A stretch of 38,733 bases of DNA from a virus (lineage: Duplodnaviria > Heunggongvirae > Uroviricota > Caudoviricetes). Below, in pieces: positions 1,512 to 17,463 of this stretch. Every line of letters begins with the position of its first letter. Position 1 is the stretch's first letter. The stretch lies in IMG/VR virus record IMGVR_UViG_2698536454_000017; one strand, written 5' to 3'. The notes beneath the pieces are model-generated. The model had not been told where the DNA came from. It saw only the letters and a list, made by a program, of their open reading frames with translations, and searched no databases. A program made the translations under genes and the position numbers.

Positions 1512-1805
1512 TCAGTCATTACTGATAGCGCCATAGCGTGAGCGGTAATTACGCAGGCGCGGGTCGATTTCAGGGAAGTGGGTATATGTGGCTTTGCGGA
1601 ATGGTCGGATTGATGTCTGGTAAATTCGCTCTCGTTCTTCTTTCTCTGCAAGCCATATGCAGTGGCGAAACTCCTTTTCCTCTTTCGTTTCCTGCGGTAG
1701 AGACATTATTCGATCGTAGTTTTTTCTGAATTTATCCAGCACCTCCGATACGGAATTGCCGGAACAGCGGCGCGGGTCATCCGCACCATACAGAGGCGCT
1801 GGCAT
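1512..1805 (-). CDS. hypothetical phage protein (97 aa); position and size compatible with an Abc2-like anti-RecBCD protein but not verified
   Basis: ATG at 1805..1803 with AAGGA SD; tightly packed in early-left operon downstream of erf. Confidence 0.45.
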   Translation of the reverse strand: MPAPLYGADDPRRCSGNSVSEVLDKFRKNYDRIMSLPQETKEEKEFRHCIWLAEKEERERIYQTSIRPFRKATYTHFPEIDPRLRNYRSRYGAISND

Positions 1806-2899: not shown

Positions 2900-4200
2900 G
2901 CATTCCTTCGCGGTCGCCATTATGGCGATACCAGAGAGCTTTCTGCGTGTACATGCGTCTCTGTAACTTGCTCTCCTTCACTGTGGTTGCAAGTGACATG
3001 CATATCTCCTTCGTTACCGATTAATTCTTTCATCTGACGAATGAATTCTTTGTCTGACCAGTTATCTTTGACATCCTCCACGCCCTAAAGGGCGTGGATT
3101 CCTCCTTCGAGACGGCGATGTCCCGCCGCGAGAATGTTCTTTGCCGCGTTTACGTCGCGGTCGTGGAGTTCACCACATTCCACGCAGATCCATTCTCTTA
3201 TTCCAAGGCCTACCCTACCCTTCGGACTACTGCAGCTAATAGCTCCGCAGCACGAGCAAGTCTGGGTGGTGTACGCTTCATCTACGACCTCAAAAACCAC
3301 ACTCCGCGCAATCGCTTTATACTGAATCTGATTTTTTAGCTGACACCAGCCGGCGTCGTAGATACTTTTTGCCAAATTTGTTTTTGATAACTTTTTACTG
3401 CTTACGTCGCCTACAAAAATAGCGGCGTATTTATTAACCAGCGCCGTAGAAAACTTATGGTGTGCATCTTTACGGCGATTTTTGATTTTTGCGTGGATAG
3501 CTCTAACACGTTTTTTATTATGGGCACGTTGAGCAATTTTTAATTTGCCTTCTAATTCACGATACCAACGTTTAGCAGGAAGTTTTTCACCATCCGAAGT
3601 GGTGGCAATGTCTTTCAGACCAAGATCGATACCCACGTCGGCAGTGCCTTTAGTTGGTTCGCATTCGTATTCAACTGCAACATTGAAATACCAGCGACCG
3701 CGCGCATCTTCTGCAAAGTTACCAGCACGGAATTTAAAGCCATTTAATCCATAGCTATCCCACACTTTGAAATAGTGCCCGGCAAACTTGATGCAGCCGT
3801 TTACCCATTTCACTTGAGCACCTTTGAACGGAACCCAACCAAGACTACGCCCAGCACCGCCACTTTTACGCCAGCGCAGCTTACTGCGTTTAAACTGTTT
3901 ACGCGCTTTAGCGTGATGTTTTGAGATTTCCTGACAAGTAGCTGCTTGTATGTGGTATCCGCGCTCCTTTTGAATACCAGCAATGCGTTTATCTACGTCA
4001 AATTCAGTTAACCAAACTCTTTGTTTTGGTCCGTATTCGCTGACAGTGCTGTATTCAGTCGCAGTCATTTCATTGATAAAGTTAAAAACTTGGTTCACTT
4101 CAAAGGCCATCTGACGCAACAAGGCGGCGTGGCGGTCTTTGACGCGTACCTGCAATGTTTTAGTCTGAATAGCCATTTACTTGCTCCCCTTATTGGTAAA
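2900..4200 (-). mobile_element. IS200/IS605-family insertion element carrying tnpB only (IS1341-like); ends approximate
   Basis: Intact tnpB with no Y1 HUH transposase nearby; perfect hairpin at tnpB stop; located in intergenic position upstream of erf; exact left and right ends not determinable without comparison. Confidence 0.5.
3085..4176 (-). CDS. tnpB: TnpB (IS605 OrfB-family RuvC-like RNA-guided endonuclease), 363 aa
   Basis: Motifs GIDLGLKDIATTSDGEKL (RuvC-I), TTQTCSCCG...CVECG zinc finger, HDRDVNAAKNIL (RuvC-III); GGGGAG SD 7 nt before ATG 4176. Confidence 0.85.
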   Translation of the reverse strand: MAIQTKTLQVRVKDRHAALLRQMAFEVNQVFNFINEMTATEYSTVSEYGPKQRVWLTEFDVDKRIAGIQKERGYHIQAATCQEISKHHAKARKQFKRSKLRWRKSGGAGRSLGWVPFKGAQVKWVNGCIKFAGHYFKVWDSYGLNGFKFRAGNFAEDARGRWYFNVAVEYECEPTKGTADVGIDLGLKDIATTSDGEKLPAKRWYRELEGKLKIAQRAHNKKRVRAIHAKIKNRRKDAHHKFSTALVNKYAAIFVGDVSSKKLSKTNLAKSIYDAGWCQLKNQIQYKAIARSVVFEVVDEAYTTQTCSCCGAISCSSPKGRVGLGIREWICVECGELHDRDVNAAKNILAAGHRRLEGGIHAL

Positions 4201-11069: not shown

Positions 11070-11472
11070 CGCCATAGACGCAATACTCTCACTTCCCATC
11101 GACGACAAGTCACCCCACGAAGTCCACCTTAAAGAACCCAAACGCAGCAAAGCGCAGAATGACCGTATGTGGCCGATGCTGAACGATGTTTCGCGTCAGG
11201 TGCTATGGCATGGTCAACGGCTGGCACCGGAAGACTGGAAAGACCTGTTCACTGCCCTGTGGCTTAAGACCAAAAAACTGGAGCAACGAAGTGTTCCTGG
11301 TATCGACGGTGGCGTTGTCATGCTTGGCGTGCGTACCAGCAAAATGCGAAAGGCCAGCATGACTGAGCTTATCGAAATCATGTTCTGGTTCGGCTCAGAG
11401 CGCAACGTGCGGTGGAGTGATGACTCCCGGCGAGAGTATGAATGGTCACAACGAAAAGGGAAGGCTGCATGA
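11026..11472 (+). CDS. ninB: NinB (Orf-family recombination mediator)
   Basis: Resembles lambda NinB (LDQNRKLWA-like KAQNDRMWPMLNDVSRQV, WHG, SKMR motifs); start 11026 or 11041 uncertain. Confidence 0.65.
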   Translation: MKQIYMLRNEAIRNNAIDAILSLPIDDKSPHEVHLKEPKRSKAQNDRMWPMLNDVSRQVLWHGQRLAPEDWKDLFTALWLKTKKLEQRSVPGIDGGVVMLGVRTSKMRKASMTELIEIMFWFGSERNVRWSDDSRREYEWSQRKGKAA

Positions 11473-11996
11473 CTATCAAATCAAATACGCCGGCACACGA
11501 CAAGGACTGCTGGCAAACGCCGCTTTGGCTTTTTGATGCACTGGATATTGAGTTTGGATTCTGGCTGGATTCGGCAGCGAGCGACAAAAATGCTCTGTGT
11601 GCTCACTGGCTAACTGAGGCCGACGACGCGCTCAATTCTGAGTGGGTAAGCCACGGTGCAATCTGGAATAACCCACCGTACAGCAATATCAGGCCGTGGG
11701 TGGAAAAAGCTGCTGAGCAGTGCATACAACAGCGACAGACGGTAGTTATGCTTGTGCCAGAGGATATGTCAGTCGGATGGTTCAGCAAGGCTCTGGAGAG
11801 TGTCGACGAAGTTCGCATCATCACTGATGGACGGATTAATTTTATCGAACCATCGACGGGGCTGGAGAAGAAGGGAAACAGCAAAGGCTCAATGCTGCTG
11901 ATTTGGCGACCGTTCATCAGTCCTCGACGGATGTTTACTACCGTATCCAAAGCGGCATTGATGGCGATCGGGCAGGGCGTCAGGAGGGCGGCATGA
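11469..11996 (+). CDS. orphan DNA N6-adenine methyltransferase (phage Dam-type)
   Basis: NPPYS catalytic motif (DPPY-class), phage Dam-like N-terminus [13 protein letters not shown]; no restriction endonuclease partner adjacent. Confidence 0.7.
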
Positions 11997-12169
11997 GGCG
12001 ACAGCGACGAAGTATCACCGACATAATCTGCGAAAACTGCAAATACCTTCCAACGAAACGCTCCAGAAATAAATCCAAGCCAATCCCAAAAGAATCTGAC
12101 GTAAAAACCTTCAACTACACGGCTCACCTGTGGGATATCCGGTGGCTAAGACATCGTGCGAGGAAATGA
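11993..12169 (+). CDS. small basic protein (58 aa) with CxxC
   Basis: ATG 11993 with AGGAGG SD; ATGA overlap with methyltransferase stop. Confidence 0.35.
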
Positions 12170-12171
12170 CA

Positions 12172-12573
12172 ATGCTTTTAATTCAACCTGGATTTGGACT
12201 TAGCATCAAAAAAGGCCACATGTTTGGCGAGAAAGAGTCACAACGAAAAATGGTGTCTATCCGGTTGCCATTTATCAGTATTTATTGGCTAAACAGGGAG
12301 GCAACAAATTATTGGTATACATGCGCCAGAGCAGCATTTAACGACCCTGACTGGTTTGTGGAAAACCACCACGCAGTTCGTCAGGCAAAGAGAAAGGCCA
12401 ACATGACATACATGAAGGCGTATCGAAAAGCATGGAAAGAACACCGCGATCGATACCAGCAAGATATGGAAAAGCTTGAATCAGAAAACATGGAATTAAG
12501 ACGAAAGCTTGGTGAAGCAAAACGAGACATTGATGCTTACAAGCGACTTTTTAATGGTGAAAGCCATGCTTAG
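12172..12573 (+). CDS. hypothetical nin-region protein (133 aa; start uncertain)
   Basis: ORF 12130..12573 trimmed to ATG 12172 after AGGAA; C-terminal coiled-coil-like segment. Confidence 0.4.
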   Translation: MLLIQPGFGLSIKKGHMFGEKESQRKMVSIRLPFISIYWLNREATNYWYTCARAAFNDPDWFVENHHAVRQAKRKANMTYMKAYRKAWKEHRDRYQQDMEKLESENMELRRKLGEAKRDIDAYKRLFNGESHA

Positions 12574-12742
12574 TCCATCCCAATCTCTTCAATACCAGAA
12601 AGAAAGCGTCGAGCGGGCTTTAACGTGCGCTAACTGCGGTCAGAAGCTGCATGTGCTGGAAGTTCACGTGTGTGAGCACTGCTGCGCAGAGCTGATGAGC
12701 GATCCGAATAGCTCAATGTACGAGGAAGAAGACGATGAATGA
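12566..12742 (+). CDS. NinF-like small zinc-binding protein (58 aa)
   Basis: CANCGQ...HVCEHCCAEL cysteine pattern like lambda NinF; ATG 12566 overlaps upstream stop. Confidence 0.4.
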   Translation: MLSPSQSLQYQKESVERALTCANCGQKLHVLEVHVCEHCCAELMSDPNSSMYEEEDDE

Positions 12743-13457
12743 GTTAATAAATGGCAATGCCATCAAAATGACAAGCATTGAAATCGCTGAGTTGGTGGGT
12801 AAGCGTCATGACAATGTGAAACGTACCATCGAAACGCTGGCTAAAAATGGTGTTATCCGGCTTCCTCAAATTGAGGTTTCCGAAAGAATCAATAACTTAG
12901 GGTTCAATGTTCAGTACGAGCATTACGTCTTCGAGGGCGAACAAGGTAAGCGAGACAGTATTGTCGTTGTTGCCCAGTTGTCGCCAGAGTTCACCGCTCG
13001 CCTTGTTGACCGCTGGCGAGAGCTTGAAGAAGCTGCGGTTAATATCCCCAAAACGCTACCGGAAGCGTTGCGCCTTGCTGCCGATCTTGCTGAGCAGAAA
13101 ATGCAACTGGAAAACCAGCTCGCAATTGCCGCACCTAAAGTTGAGTTTGCCGATCGCGTTGGCGAGGCCAGTGGAATTTTGATTGGAAACTTTGCAAAGG
13201 TTGTTGGAATTGGTCCAAACAAACTGTTTGCGTGGATGCGCGATCACAAAATCCTTATTGCTTCAGGTTCCCGGCGCAATGTGCCAATGCAGGAATATAT
13301 GGAGCGCGGCTATTTCACAGTGAAAGAAACAGCGGTCAACACAAATCACGGAATACAGATATCGTTCACCACAAAAATCACCGGGCGTGGTCAACAGTGG
13401 CTGACCAGAAAGCTGCTCGATAACGGAATGCTGAAAGTAACAGGGGAGGCTGCTTAA
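12735..13457 (+). CDS. Rha-family regulator / antirepressor-like protein
   Basis: N-terminal Rha-like motif NGNAIKMTSIEIAELVGKRHDNVKR and C-terminal Ant/KilAC-like region. Confidence 0.6.
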   Translation: MNELINGNAIKMTSIEIAELVGKRHDNVKRTIETLAKNGVIRLPQIEVSERINNLGFNVQYEHYVFEGEQGKRDSIVVVAQLSPEFTARLVDRWRELEEAAVNIPKTLPEALRLAADLAEQKMQLENQLAIAAPKVEFADRVGEASGILIGNFAKVVGIGPNKLFAWMRDHKILIASGSRRNVPMQEYMERGYFTVKETAVNTNHGIQISFTTKITGRGQQWLTRKLLDNGMLKVTGEAA

Positions 13458-13494
13458 TGGCCAATCTACGCAAAGAAGCACGCGGAGGAAGACG

Positions 13495-14004
13495 ATGGAT
13501 GATGTAAAAGAAAAAGATATCCCCGGGTTTGAGGGTATATATAAAGTAACTGAGAATGGAGACATCATTTCATGCCGTAAATCAAAAAAATTATCTCATG
13601 GTATTAAACCAGGAGGATATGCATTTGTCGGTCTATATCCAGGTGGCGGGAAAAGACCATCATATAAAATGGTTCACAGAATTGTTGCAGAAGTATTTGT
13701 TGATAACCCAGATGGAAAGCCGGAAGTTAATCACAAGGATGGAAATAAACTTAATAATAAAGTTGAAAATCTTGAGTGGGTAACGCGAACAGAAAATGCG
13801 AAACATGGATTTGATTCCGGGTTGCTTGTTCATGGTTTTAATCATCACTTCTGCAAACTAACGCCAGAACAAGTGAAATCAATATATAAATCAAAAGGCA
13901 AATACAGAGATATAGCCAAAGAATTTGGTGTTTGTGCGCAGACAGTGTGCAACATAAAAAACAAATCAGCGTACCGACGTTTTTTGGAGGGGATTGATGT
14001 TTAG
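13495..14004 (+). CDS. free-standing HNH homing endonuclease (NUMOD4-like N-terminus)
   Basis: GFEGIYKVTENGDI (NUMOD4-like), VNHKDGNKLNNKVENLEWVTRTENAKH (HNH); markedly AT-rich relative to flanks. Confidence 0.75.
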   Translation: MDDVKEKDIPGFEGIYKVTENGDIISCRKSKKLSHGIKPGGYAFVGLYPGGGKRPSYKMVHRIVAEVFVDNPDGKPEVNHKDGNKLNNKVENLEWVTRTENAKHGFDSGLLVHGFNHHFCKLTPEQVKSIYKSKGKYRDIAKEFGVCAQTVCNIKNKSAYRRFLEGIDV

Positions 14005-14272: not shown

Positions 14273-14631
14273 ACGAATATCAGTTTGTGCTTCCGTACCC
14301 ACCGTCGGTGAATACCTACTGGCGAAGACGGGGAAGCCAATACTACATCAGCGATAAAGGCCAGAAATACCGAAAAGACGTTCAGCAAATCATCCGCCAA
14401 CTTAAGTTAGACATTTTCACCAAATCACGACTCCGCATCAAAGTCATCGCAGACGTTCCAGACTCCCGCCGCCGCGACCTCGACAACATCCTGAAAGGTT
14501 TACTCGACTCCCTTATCCACGCCGGATTTGCGGAAGACGACGAGCAATTCGATGACATTCGCGTAATTCGTGGTGTGAAAGTACCAGGCGGACGGCTTGG
14601 AATAAAAATCACCGAACTGGAGAACGTATGA
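14269..14631 (+). CDS. rusA: RusA Holliday-junction resolvase
   Basis: 120 aa, strong resemblance to E. coli RusA (LPYPPSVNTYWRRRG, DVPDSRRRDLDN, GGRLGIKITE). Confidence 0.85.
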   Translation: MNEYQFVLPYPPSVNTYWRRRGSQYYISDKGQKYRKDVQQIIRQLKLDIFTKSRLRIKVIADVPDSRRRDLDNILKGLLDSLIHAGFAEDDEQFDDIRVIRGVKVPGGRLGIKITELENV

Positions 14632-14816
14632 ACGCCACAATTCAAACGATACCAGAGCTTCTTATCCAGACACGAAGCAATCAGACCGAAGTGGCGAGGA
14701 TGCTTTCCTGCGCAAGAGGAACAGTGCTCAAGTACAACCGAGACAGAAAAGGCGAGCGTCACGTAATAGTTAACGGCGTCCTGATGGTCAAACAGGGCAA
14801 GAGGGGAAGACGATGA
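14628..14816 (+). CDS. ninH: NinH-like protein
   Basis: TIPELLIQTRSNQTEVARMLSCARGTVLKY resembles lambda NinH. Confidence 0.6.
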   Translation: MNATIQTIPELLIQTRSNQTEVARMLSCARGTVLKYNRDRKGERHVIVNGVLMVKQGKRGRR

Positions 14817-15301
14817 GCATAAGAGAACTAAACCTCACCAAAGAACAGCACGATTGGCTGAATGGCTGGCTTGAACTGTGGGGCGCATGGGTTTATTCAG
14901 GTCGTCTGGAAAAGCGCATGAGCAGCGTAATAGCGAAGTTCATGGAGAGCGTAGAGCCGGGAAGAGTTATGACAAGGCCAATGTGTAATGATGATGATGG
15001 AATGTTGATTTCTCAGGTCGTCGATTCCGTCATGTGCATTGACAAGAAAGCCTTTGGCATCCTCCTCAGCTACTACGCTCATGGATCTTCCAAGCATGCC
15101 ATTGCATCTTACTATCATCGTGTCGCAAGACCTCGCAAGATGTTATGCCGGGGCGGCGGGCGTATTCAAAAACCATCGCTCGCAACCTGTCGCCGGGAAG
15201 TTGACGAAATCCTCAATGCTTCGTTGTTTATGATTTACCCAGTTCTGGATAGTGCGTTTAAAAACCGGAAACGTGTAGAGAAAATTAAACATGTAGCATA
15301 G
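14813..15301 (+). CDS. Q: late-gene antiterminator Q (phage 21/82-type, 162 aa)
   Basis: Position last in the nin operon directly upstream of the late/lysis region; size and context match the small Q class; sequence identity not verified. Confidence 0.55.
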   Translation: MSIRELNLTKEQHDWLNGWLELWGAWVYSGRLEKRMSSVIAKFMESVEPGRVMTRPMCNDDDGMLISQVVDSVMCIDKKAFGILLSYYAHGSSKHAIASYYHRVARPRKMLCRGGGRIQKPSLATCRREVDEILNASLFMIYPVLDSAFKNRKRVEKIKHVA

Positions 15302-15347
15302 AACGTGTTGACATCATTGAGCAAATGAGCAACACTATTCGCATAAG

Positions 15348-15389
15348 CTGCCGTTAGTGACTCTTAAGTTGCAACGGTGGCTTTTTTTA
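15348..15389 (+). terminator. hairpin plus T7 run downstream of Q (tR-prime-like terminator)
   Basis: CTGCCGTT...AACGGTGG stem then CTTTTTTT (15381-15388); consensus -35 TTGACA at 15308-15313 upstream but no convincing -10. Confidence 0.35.
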
Positions 15390-15392
15390 TTT

Positions 15393-15467
15393 GGGTCAGT
15401 CGTATAAAGGTCATTACGGAATGCTGTTAACCTTCTTATCGTGGTTCGAGTCCACGCTGTCCCGCCA
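15393..15467 (+). tRNA. tRNA-Asn-like (anticodon GUU), divergent
   Basis: Hand-folded cloverleaf: T-arm CGTGG-TTCGAGT-CCACG, anticodon loop CTGTTAA, 3-prime CCA encoded; one mismatch each in acceptor and anticodon stems, so possibly a pseudo-tRNA. Confidence 0.45.
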
Positions 15468-15472
15468 AACAT

Positions 15473-15548
15473 GCTGGTTTAGCTCCAATGGTAGAGCAGT
15501 CGCCTTGTAAGCGAATGGGTAGCGGTTCAAGTCCGTTAACCAGCACCA
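15473..15548 (+). tRNA. tRNA-Thr (anticodon UGU)
   Basis: Hand-folded: acceptor GCTGGTT/AACCAGC, D-arm GCTC-CAATGGTA-GAGC, anticodon loop CTTGTAA, T-arm AGCGG-TTCAAGT-CCGTT, CCA encoded. Confidence 0.6.
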
Positions 15549-15792
15549 TAACTGAGCCGTAGCCACTGGCTATCCTGAATTCATCAGTGATAGTTACGCT
15601 GCGGCCTTCTACACATGACCTTCGTGAAAGCGGGTGGCATGAGGTTGCGCTAACAACCTCCTGCCGTTTTGCCCGTGCATATCGGTCACGAACAAATCTG
15701 ATTACTAAACACAGTAGCCTGGATTTGTTCTATCAGTAATCGACCTTATTCCTAATTAAATAGAGCAAATCCCCTCAATGAAGGGGTAGAGC

Positions 15793-15996
15793 ATGTACCG
15801 TATGGACAAAATCAGAGAATGGTTCAGTTACAGCTTCGGAGGACTGACTGCGATGGGTGGCATTCTCTCCCTGAATGACTGGGCTGTCATCATTGGTATT
15901 CTTTGTACTGTCGGCACATTTGGCATCAACTGGTACTACAAGCGCAAAGAGCGCGAGGACAGATTGAATGGCAATGTCACCGGCACTACGAAATAG
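15793..15996 (+). CDS. class II holin (pinholin-like, 67 aa, two TM segments)
   Basis: Hydrophobic segments and charged C-terminus; AAGGGG SD; immediately precedes a SAR endolysin as in phage 21. Confidence 0.65.
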
Positions 15997-16471
15997 CGTA
16001 ATAGCGGCGATAAGTGGCGGGGCTATTGCTATAGCATCTGTGTTAATCACTGGCCCAAGTGGTAACGATGGTCTGGAAGGTGTCAGCTACATACCATACA
16101 AAGATATTGTTGGTGTATGGACTGTATGTCACGGACACACCGGAAAAGACATCATGCTCGGTAAAACGTATACCGAAGCAGAATGCAAAGCCCTCCTGAA
16201 TAAAGACCTTGCCACGGTCGCCAGACAAATTAACCCGTACATCAAAGTCGATATACCGGAAACAACGCGCGGCGCTCTTTATTCGTTCGTCTATAACGTG
16301 GGCGCAGGCAATTTCAGAACATCGACGCTTCTTCGCAAAATCAACCAGGGCGATATCAAGGGCGCATGTGACCAGCTACGTCGCTGGACATACGCTGGCG
16401 GTAAGCAATGGAAAGGGCTGATGACTCGCCGTGAGATTGAGCGTGAAGTCTGTTTGTGGGGGCAGCAATGA
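15968..16471 (+). CDS. SAR endolysin (T4-lysozyme-like muramidase with N-terminal signal-anchor-release domain)
   Basis: N-terminal SAR segment [17 protein letters not shown] followed by lysozyme motifs ([23 protein letters not shown]); matches recalled phage 21 R. Confidence 0.8.
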
Positions 16472-16905
16472 GCAGAGTAACTGCGATTATCTCCGCTCTG
16501 GTTATCTGCATCATCGTCTGCCTGTCATGGGCTGTTAATCATTACCGTGATAACGCAATCGCCTACAAAGAGCAGCGCGATAAGGCCGCATCCACAATTG
16601 CTGACATGCAGAAGCGTCAACGTGATGTAGCAGAACTCGACGCCAGATACACAAAGGAGCTTGCTGATGCTAACGCGACTATCGAAAGCCTCCGTGCTGA
16701 TGTTTCTGCTGGTCGTAAGCGCCTGCAAGTCGCCGCCACCTGTGCAAAGTCAACGACCGGAGCCAGCAGCATGGGCGATGGAGAAAGCCCAAGACTTACA
16801 GCAGATGCTGAACTCAATTATTACCGTCTCAGAAGTGGAATCGACAGGATAACCGCGCAGGTTAACTACCTGCAGGAGTACATCAGGACTCAGTGCCTGA
16901 AATAA
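16468..16905 (+). CDS. Rz: i-spanin (Rz)
   Basis: N-terminal TM then coiled coil; ATG 16468 with GGGGG SD, ATGA overlap with endolysin stop. Confidence 0.7.
16667..16852 (+). CDS. Rz1: o-spanin (Rz1) embedded in +1 frame of Rz
   Basis: Lipobox LVVSAC followed by proline-rich segment; AAAGGAGC SD before ATG 16667. Confidence 0.6.
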
Positions 16906-16983: not shown

Positions 16984-17463
16984 ATGACCCAGCATATTGG
17001 CGTAAAACTGATTAACGCCTTTCCGATGACGAGACAGGCATATAACGATTTTCGTGGCTGGCAGCTTCCTGCCGGAGAAAACGGCGAGGACGAAGGCTAT
17101 CTGGTTGAATATCTGGATGGCGGGAAACCTAACACCGATCGCTTTGATGGCTACGTTAGCTGGAGTCCAAAAGAAGTATTCGAAAAGGCTTATCGTCCGG
17201 TATCAGGACTAAGTTTCGGCCTTGCCATGGAAGCGTTAAAACAGGGCAAAAGTTTGCAGCGGGCAGGATGGAATGGGAAAGACCAGTTTGTTTATCTCGT
17301 GAAAGGGGAAAAATTAGCGTCTGCGTTGGGTTATGGCTTTGGCGAATATGTTGGCGAGCCAACTTTCAATGACACGCTTGTATTGAAAAACTCACAGAAC
17401 CGCCTTGCTACATGGGTTCCATCCATTGGCGACCTGATGGCTGAAGACTGGCAAATCATTTAA
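16984..17463 (+). CDS. two-domain protein with C-terminal DUF2829-like (Tad2-like) domain
   Basis: C-terminal half LAMEALKQGKSLQRAGWNGKDQFVYLV ... DLMAEDWQII matches recalled DUF2829 signature; N-terminal 75 aa unassigned. Confidence 0.5.
   Translation: MTQHIGVKLINAFPMTRQAYNDFRGWQLPAGENGEDEGYLVEYLDGGKPNTDRFDGYVSWSPKEVFEKAYRPVSGLSFGLAMEALKQGKSLQRAGWNGKDQFVYLVKGEKLASALGYGFGEYVGEPTFNDTLVLKNSQNRLATWVPSIGDLMAEDWQII

Follow-up and report, generated by a model that had tools for sequence, protein, structure and literature searches.

Annotation of the window, the whole 38.7-kb stretch of DNA analysed here, with ARAGORN revealed exactly two tRNA genes, both on the + strand and separated by a spacer of 5 nt: a tRNA-Asn(GUU) gene at 15393-15467 and a tRNA-Thr(UGU) gene at 15473-15548, the latter corresponding to the tRNA named tRNA-Thr21 in phage 21. 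Both genes matched Rfam RF00005 over model positions 1-71 of 71, tRNA-Asn with 45.9 bits (E 8e-7) and tRNA-Thr with 61.5 bits (E 4e-11), where the gathering score of the family is 29 bits; no element besides these two passed the Rfam thresholds within the window. A preliminary description of this DNA had placed the two genes at these positions, and both predictors returned them above threshold with boundaries, anticodons and strand unchanged. Each gene encodes its own CCA end, preceded by G73 in tRNA-Asn and by A73 in tRNA-Thr, and the covariation described below is in agreement with both assignments.

Both anticodon loops comprise 7 nt with U33 (CUGUUAA in tRNA-Asn, CUUGUAA in tRNA-Thr), and the T-loop motif GTTCRANTC is found in both genes. 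The identity set recognised by E. coli AsnRS consists of G34, U35, U36 and the discriminator G73, all of which are present in the tRNA-Asn sequence as GUU at 34-36 and the G preceding the encoded CCA. For E. coli ThrRS the set is G1-C72, C2-G71, G35, and U36; tRNA-Thr contains G1-C72, C2-G71, and U34 G35 U36, and these are invariant in 19/19 variants. Three stems of the tRNA-Asn cloverleaf each contain one mismatch: U4.U69 (acceptor), U13.U22 (D), and U30.C40 (anticodon). The first and the last of these are the single mismatches that the preliminary description had noticed in the acceptor and anticodon stems, while the one in the D stem had not been listed. The divergence that it saw in tRNA-Asn is of two kinds: U4.U69 and U13.U22 are conserved family-wide, and U30.C40 alone results from a lineage-private G-to-T change. 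It had called tRNA-Thr canonical, which is not entirely so: a G27.A43 mismatch reduces the anticodon stem to 4 bp, there is no paired CNG motif, and C14 takes the place of the A found at position 14 in nearly all tRNAs.

Upstream of the pair, the + strand encodes a Q antiterminator of the phage 21 type (14813..15301), which is identical to phage 21 Q in 159/162 aa (98%) and matches PHROG 943 'anti-termination protein Q-like' with an E of 8e-90. We placed the regulatory elements that follow, likewise on the + strand, by coordinate transfer of the experimentally based annotation in the phage 21 record OL657228, to which every one of them is 100% identical. These are the pR' -35 element TTGACA (15308-15313), the Q-binding element (QBE) ATTGAGCA/AATGAGCA overlapping pR' (15316-15331), the pR' -10 element AACACT (15331-15336), the transcription start site A15343, the sigma-dependent pause element (15344-15350), and the terminator tR' (15345-15392). 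In prediction, tR' folds into a hairpin (-20.2 kcal/mol) with UUUUUUUAUUU behind it, and the last base of the U tract directly precedes G1 of tRNA-Asn; tR' is the Q-proximal terminator that had been proposed to lie just upstream of the tRNAs. With a Q21-family protein, a QBE, a pause element, and tR' all present, the region constitutes a late-control module of the phage 21 type.

Downstream of the pair, an untranslated lambda-like spacer (15550..15788, +) extends from the tRNA module to the holin gene and is 95.4% identical to lambda 44945-45181, the sequence directly upstream of S. The likeness to lambda begins one base past the CCA of tRNA-Thr and marks the right-hand mosaic joint of the tRNA module; at loci without tRNAs, the lambda-like spacer likewise appears directly after tR'. 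Protein-coding genes of the late operon begin with the lysis cassette (15793..16905, +), which comprises a class II holin (15793-15996), an endolysin (15968-16471), and an Rz-like spanin (16456-16905). All three are + strand ORFs with homologues annotated in BTP1 and Sf6, the holin and endolysin being assigned by PHROG as well, and the ORFs and PHROG matches confirm the claimed position of the tRNAs between Q and the lysis genes. Directly past the lysis genes lies the coding sequence of a Tad2-like anti-defence domain. The rest of the window represents a P22-like E. coli phage with E212 and CUS-3 as its nearest relatives, encoding P22-type Abc2 and Erf and no Gam. Taking identity and context together, we consider it practically certain that the locus holds two genuine tRNA genes in a known setting.

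The Asn/Thr tRNA pair has been described and named before, in phage 21 and its relatives. Annotations of it exist for phage 21, Sf6 (where a note reads 'similar to phage 21'), BTP1, SPN9CC, SfI, vB_SosS_Oslo, and others, and the phage L genome paper explicitly discusses the tRNA island. A 511-bp region was matched by 176 phage records, the 156-bp pair was matched in 369 of the 5,426 complete E. coli genomes (~7%), and the tRNA-Asn core occurred in at least 120 IMG/VR contigs. Phage 21 (OL657228; PMC12445682) displays the same order and spacing of Q21, pR'/QBE/SDPE, tR', tRNA-Asn, and tRNA-Thr, with a tRNA-Thr that is 100% identical to that of the window and a tRNA-Asn identical in 74/75 positions, where phage 21 has G30 and the window U30. 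The two phages differ further downstream, where phage 21 carries the S21 pinholin cassette and the window the lambda-like spacer with a different holin, and in their backbones, lambda-like in phage 21 and P22-like (Abc2, Erf) in the window. Sf6, BTP1, SPN9CC, SfI, and vB_SosS_Oslo share with the window the two tRNAs and their location as well as the lambda-like spacer and class II holin that come next, at 97-98% identity across 457 bp, and unlike the window all of them have G30; in Sf6 and BTP1 the promoter/QBE segment has diverged and Q is 172 aa long. The pair forms a 'tRNA island', an optional part of the late-control module of the phage 21 type, which resides here in a P22-like E. coli phage.

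Other phages that combine Asn(GUU) with Thr(UGU) genes are P1, Cyrano (108 kb), N4-like phages, and a lambdoid phage of Klebsiella. The genes of P1, Cyrano, and the N4-like phages share with the window the two anticodons, their order, and the close spacing, and their Thr genes are ~80-85% identical to that of the window, but they are located in genomic contexts other than a late leader. Their tRNA-Thr anticodon stems are fully paired, with CUG/CAG kept only by P1 and Cyrano, and tRNA-Asn of P1 retains the AriB site U36AAUCA41, unlike tRNA-Asn of the window. In Stx phages such as 933W, the tRNA genes ileZ-argN-argO lie downstream of Q/pR' and before the first late genes; these are other isoacceptors, reading the rare codons AUA, AGA, and AGG, and are classically considered a codon supply for stx and the late genes. 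Within the phage 21-type module itself the island is dispensable: no tRNA follows tR' in ~39 of 48 additional loci selected by their tR', damaged tRNA-Asn alleles exist in several lineages, and the second slot is variable, sometimes holding another tRNA such as Gly(UCC). One IMG/VR locus contains a chimeric gene composed of the 5' half of the phage tRNA-Thr and the 3' half of host thrU, followed by a glyT-like gene, and has therefore recombined with a host tRNA operon.

To evaluate covariation, we mapped the distinct sequence variants of the retrieved loci onto the cloverleaf and scored its pairs, using 500 shuffles and slid registers as controls. Both-sided changes were detected in 8/21 pairs of tRNA-Thr, with 95.5% of cells paired, and in 4/21 pairs of tRNA-Asn. 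Three of the latter come from the Klebsiella phage copy, and the fourth is a G.U/U.G exchange at 4:69, a position that is usually mismatched. None of the shuffles matched the observed covariation (0/500 for Asn and 0/500 for Thr) and the slid registers yielded 0-3, although the independent events are few because the sequences are closely related. Base pairing is preserved in all four stems by compensatory changes, a sign that selection acts on the RNA rather than the DNA. The diverged Klebsiella copy of tRNA-Asn retains both U4.U69 and U13.U22, so these mismatches are features of the family and not damage. Recent capture from the host was ruled out by sequence identity, which amounts to 48/78 between tRNA-Asn and asnT and to 55/78 between tRNA-Thr and thrU.

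Late, Q-dependent expression of the pair is well founded, because Q is 98% identical and all the regulatory elements are 100% identical to those of phage 21, and on the strength of this identity we regard it as highly probable. The preliminary description had suggested that the tRNAs may be expressed mainly late, which fits an arrangement where pR', QBE, pause element, and tR' are base for base those of phage 21. RNA polymerase would start at pR' (A15343) and pause at the sigma-dependent pause element, and would terminate at tR' in cells lacking Q. Once Q is made and loaded at the QBE, the polymerase would pass tR' and produce one late RNA including tRNA-Asn, the 5-nt spacer, tRNA-Thr, the lambda-like spacer, and the lysis and virion genes. 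Both tRNAs would then be cut from this RNA by host tRNA-processing enzymes, and CCA addition would be unneeded since both genes encode CCA. A consensus scan of 14500-16500 detected no independent tRNA promoter between tR' and the tRNAs, a scan that also missed pR', with its non-consensus -10, and tR', with its long loop. Some expression of the tRNAs may also occur in lysogen cultures, as the two tRNA genes were set aside in the list of highly expressed prophage genes in the BTP1 transcriptome paper.

The most interesting member of the pair, tRNA-Thr, is already characterised experimentally by way of the identical phage 21 tRNA (PMC12445682). P2 Old, which brings about the classical interference between P2 and lambda, kills by cleaving thrU, the one host tRNA that reads ACA, in its anticodon stem at a paired CNG motif, and phage tRNA-Thr(UGU) genes rescue the cells (PMC12445682, 2025). 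When expressed from a plasmid, tRNA-Thr21 was protective in cells making P2 Old and Gam, and its Site 1 displayed near-complete resistance in vitro, ascribed to the altered CNG motif plus the shortened anticodon stem; protection by the related tRNA-Thr6 required the UGU anticodon, and overexpression of host thrU, unlike the phage tRNAs, resulted in little or no protection (PMC12445682). Positions 28-30/40-42 read UCG/CGA in tRNA-Thr of the window and CUG/CAG in host thrU. The window gene thereby has the sequence features of a rescue tRNA, namely the UGU anticodon, an altered CNG motif, and a shortened stem, in addition to its identity with tRNA-Thr21. P22 Abc2, unlike lambda Gam, did not activate Old (PMC12445682), and since the window encodes Abc2 and not Gam, the phage may fail to trigger Old. 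Another nuclease, HepS of Gifsy-1, cuts tRNA-Thr(UGU) as a secondary target.

Comparison with the determinants of AriB cleavage disclosed changes in both tRNAs. AriB cuts host Lys(UUU), Thr(UGU), and Asn(GUU) tRNAs between positions 40 and 41, with U36-A-A-U39 in common, and in tRNA-Lys the substitution U39A abolishes cleavage while A41C lowers it (PMC12409363). Positions 36-41 are UAAGCG in tRNA-Thr of the window versus UAAUCA in host thrU, and UAACCU in tRNA-Asn versus UAAUCC in host asnT; the AriB determinants are thus changed to G39 and G41 in Thr and to C39 and U41 in Asn, where the host tRNAs have U39 with A41 or C41. The features shared by the phage Thr tRNAs with G39 do not count as independent evidence, because these tRNAs are related to one another. 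Moreover, when the E. coli cleavage site was restored in T5 tRNA-Lys, AriB cleavage was not regained (PMC12409363), and for this reason the sequence of the anticodon stem alone is no predictor of sensitivity or resistance to AriB. The prime target of PARIS is tRNA-Lys, host tRNA-Asn(GUU) being a secondary target; the T5 Lys, Thr, and Asn variants neutralise PARIS jointly, and all the tRNA combinations reported to rescue included T5 tRNA-Lys (PMC12409363). ARAGORN, with its two tRNAs, found no tRNA-Lys(UUU) in the window, and in the absence of a replacement for the prime target the pair alone is unlikely to defeat the PARIS system studied there.

The PARIS-neutralising tRNAs of T5 and those of the window have the same anticodons for two of the three, and in both sets U39 is missing and the anticodon stems are weakened. 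T5 tRNA-Asn is mismatched at 27:43 and 30:40, tRNA-Asn of the window at 30:40, and tRNA-Thr of the window at 27:43. In contrast, T5 has >20 tRNAs among promoters of their own, whereas the window has two tRNAs in a Q-controlled late leader and no tRNA-Lys. The stem and loop sequences of the two sets are also widely different.

One substitution in tRNA-Asn is private to the lineage of the window. At T15422 (15422..15422, +), in the 5' strand of the anticodon stem, U30 replaces the G that pairs with C40 in phage 21, Sf6, and BTP1. Among 50,697 phage records and 5,426 E. coli genomes, none matched the 156-bp pair identically, the best match being 99.4%. An exact 33-mer search of IMG/VR located the T form in 1 contig and the G form in at least 120, and the T-form 33-mer was absent from 185,579 representative genomes and from a metagenome collection. 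The other carrier of T differs from the window at 9 sites in 10.5 kb (99.91% identity). A sequencing error at T15422 was thus ruled out, as a second, non-identical contig shares the T, and these differences indicate that G30U is inherited in a small lineage. The substitution lowers the Rfam score by 9.4 bits, from 55.3 for the G30 allele of phage 21 to 45.9 for U30, and changes the predicted cloverleaf energy from -19.1 to -12.5 kcal/mol. The predicted pair probability of the anticodon stem drops from 0.68 to 0.00, and the isolated U30 anticodon stem-loop loses its folding in prediction.

Other rare damaging alleles of tRNA-Asn were present in the IMG/VR sample selected by its tR' sequence, which is unbiased for the tRNAs; the first sample had been drawn with a pattern spanning tRNA-Asn 17-49 and censored variation there. 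These alleles include U33A, a 1-nt stem deletion, an anticodon change, and three truncations. Stem-breaking variants amounted to 6/120 Asn genes and 2/111 Thr genes, a difference that is not significant (p = 0.28). Because other lineages also carry damaging Asn alleles, the occasional decay of a dispensable gene is the simplest reading, and G30U is most likely a mildly deleterious or neutral variant of one small lineage.

With respect to function, we propose that this known tRNA pair, expressed late in a Q-timed manner, combines ACA supply with nuclease-resistant replacement of host tRNAs, an account that we favour with some reserve. In this account, tRNA-Thr(UGU) would supply ACA decoding for the ACA-rich late genes and would survive the anticodon-stem nucleases that destroy host thrU. 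Likewise, tRNA-Asn(GUU) would probably replace host Asn against PARIS/AriB-like Toprim nucleases, as its lost U39 and changed base 41 suggest. Whether counter-defence is the main selective reason for the pair is a closer call, in which we lean only slightly towards it. This modest rating reflects the presence of Abc2, the missing tRNA-Lys, AriB recognition beyond the stem site, the post-Q timing, under which the tRNAs would arrive only after Q has been translated, the mostly tRNA-less loci, and the variable second slot.

Comparison of the late genes of the window with two 50-kb E. coli samples, treated in the same analysis, showed that ACA reaches 17.3 per 1000 codons versus 6.3 in the host samples. 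This 2.7-fold enrichment ranks 2/61, and fourth by absolute excess. The Asn codons are barely enriched, AAC 1.07x (rank 30) and AAT 1.46x (rank 14), neither of which is notable. TCA, AGA, AGG, GGA, CGA, and ATA are enriched as much as ACA or nearly so, and the island has no tRNA for any of them.

These values bear on the idea that the pair merely boosts the tRNA supply for late-gene codons and has no anti-nuclease role. The prominence of ACA in the late genes agrees with such plain supplementation, as does the single tRNA-Thr(UGU) gene of E. coli K-12 (PMC12445682), and the phage L paper proposed it for Asn, with AAC accounting for 24/25 Asn codons of the coat gene. Yet the slight enrichment of AAC and AAT and the lack of island tRNAs for the six other enriched codons are not what it predicts. 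It also leaves unexplained that both anticodon stems differ from the host exactly at the nuclease determinants, and that thrU overexpression was of little or no help against Old while the phage tRNAs were protective. We therefore judge supplementation on its own to be unlikely, though codon supply is compatible with counter-defence as a co-function of tRNA-Thr. Far less credible still is a role of the genes as DNA features, whether as targets for recombination or integration or as compensation in 'tRNA-dependent lysogeny'. Such lysogeny has reportedly been described for other phages, tRNA genes are common attachment sites, and the phage-host chimera demonstrates recombination with a host tRNA operon. 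Nevertheless, the compensatory changes in all four stems point to selection on RNA, the identical Thr tRNA works in vivo (PMC12445682), P22-like phages rebuild thrW on integration (phage L paper), and the position in a late leader, far from any integrase, is unlike that of an attachment site. On covariation and position, we rejected the integration-site and tRNA-dependent-lysogeny roles, which we hold to be exceedingly improbable.

A further alternative concerns tRNA-Asn alone, which could be functionally impaired by G30U and becoming a pseudogene, leaving tRNA-Thr as the only working member. The substitution takes a G-C pair out of a stem with A-U neighbours, the reduced Rfam score, weaker cloverleaf, and predicted loss of the stem are in line with impairment, only the window and one contig of 99.9% identity have U30, and clearly damaging Asn alleles (U33A, the 1-nt deletion, truncations) exist in other lineages. 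Against this, the U30 gene still lies well past threshold in ARAGORN and Rfam, and the allele is old enough for 9 other differences over 10.5 kb to separate its two carriers. In addition, T5 tRNA-Asn aids PARIS rescue despite two anticodon-stem mismatches, one of them at 30:40, and the thermodynamic predictions are blind to tertiary contacts and modifications. On balance we find impairment doubtful. The mismatch in T5 tRNA-Asn at the same 30:40 pair also makes the opposite reading possible, in which G30U is an escape variant. C40, left unpaired beside a 40|41 cut of the AriB type, would make tRNA-Asn a poorer substrate for Toprim nucleases, and the pair would be a Q-timed anti-nuclease module that is still evolving. 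This idea, which also mirrors the 'shortened stem' route to Old resistance, appears very improbable to us.

We thus return to the combined account, a known, Q-timed pair with ACA supply and nuclease-resistant replacement. The locus adds no new kind of element, annotation of the pair dating back to the sequences of phage 21 and Sf6, and the only new item here is the rare G30U allele of tRNA-Asn. This allele provides a natural variant with which to ask to what extent a replacement tRNA can do without pairing in its anticodon stem and remain functional. The island, present in many temperate enterobacterial phages, represents a natural test case for phage tRNAs as counter-defence.

A comparison of the IMG/VR loci selected on the Q-controlled late terminator tR' (set L139-L188) revealed that about 39 of the 48 carried no tRNA after an identical tR'. 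In these tRNA-less loci, the terminator was followed by a different segment of approximately 250-350 bp and then by the same lambda-like spacer that precedes the holin gene of the window (15550-15788); therefore, the tRNA island is an insert that a locus may carry or lack.

The island is modular in its second slot. Gly(UCC) replaced Thr in at least seven loci, among them L011, L031, L074, L075, L083, and L091, while the second slot of phage L (L125) was annotated as 'Leu(UAA)' and received no ARAGORN call, and the island of a Klebsiella phage (L126) followed the order Asn-Phe-Thr-Arg. In comparison locus L100, we found a chimeric tRNA-Thr gene (1359-1434) that combines a phage 5' half (positions 1-26) with the 3' half of the host tRNA-Thr(UGU) gene, thrU; its anticodon arm, located within the thrU-derived half, is of the host type. 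Downstream of this gene lies a glyT-like tRNA-Gly(UCC). The chimera followed by the glyT-like tRNA shows that the phage island recombined with the host thrU operon.

Several tRNA-Asn alleles from the tR'-selected loci were classed as damaged or altered: U33A in L148, loss of 1 nt from the 3' strand of the anticodon stem in L156, an anticodon change from GUU to GAU with two other changes in L147, C39U with UAAU restored in L184, and three copies each ending after about 24 nt (L143, L152, and L162). The tRNA-Thr of the window carries C14 (15486), whereas those of P1, Cyrano, and the N4-like relatives carry A14, which is near-universal in tRNAs; seven loci have U14. An exact copy of the enterobacterial phage tRNA-Thr also appeared on a contig of 3.9 kb (L137, JAJXBQ010000272.1) that had been assigned, probably by mis-binning, to a Segatella copri MAG.

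The tRNA-Asn of phage P1 (L132, 1425-1500) retains U36AAUCA41, which is identical to the site that AriB cleaves in host tRNA-Lys and tRNA-Thr. P1 tRNA-Asn would be predicted to be PARIS-sensitive, in contrast to the other phage Asn tRNAs compared.

Elsewhere in the window, the nin region encodes, within 11442-14004, a Dam-family N6-adenine methyltransferase (11442-11996), a Rha/ANT antirepressor-like protein (12735-13457), and an HNH/NUMOD4 endonuclease (13495-14004). Immediately 3' of the Rz spanin gene, beside the lysis cassette, is an ORF on the plus strand (16984-17463) whose product contains a domain resembling Tad2 (Thoeris anti-defence 2; PF11195, E 6e-22), making it a possible anti-defence gene. 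The early-left region holds, near erf and abc2, a TnpB-type ORF of 363 aa from the IS200/IS605 family (3085-4176, minus strand) with Pfam OrfB_IS605 and Cas12f1-like TNB domains. The anti-RecBCD gene abc2 itself (1512-1805, minus strand) matched PHROG 656 (E 3e-55). Its presence is relevant because the anticodon-stem nuclease P2 Old was activated by lambda Gam but not by P22 Abc2 (PMC12445682).
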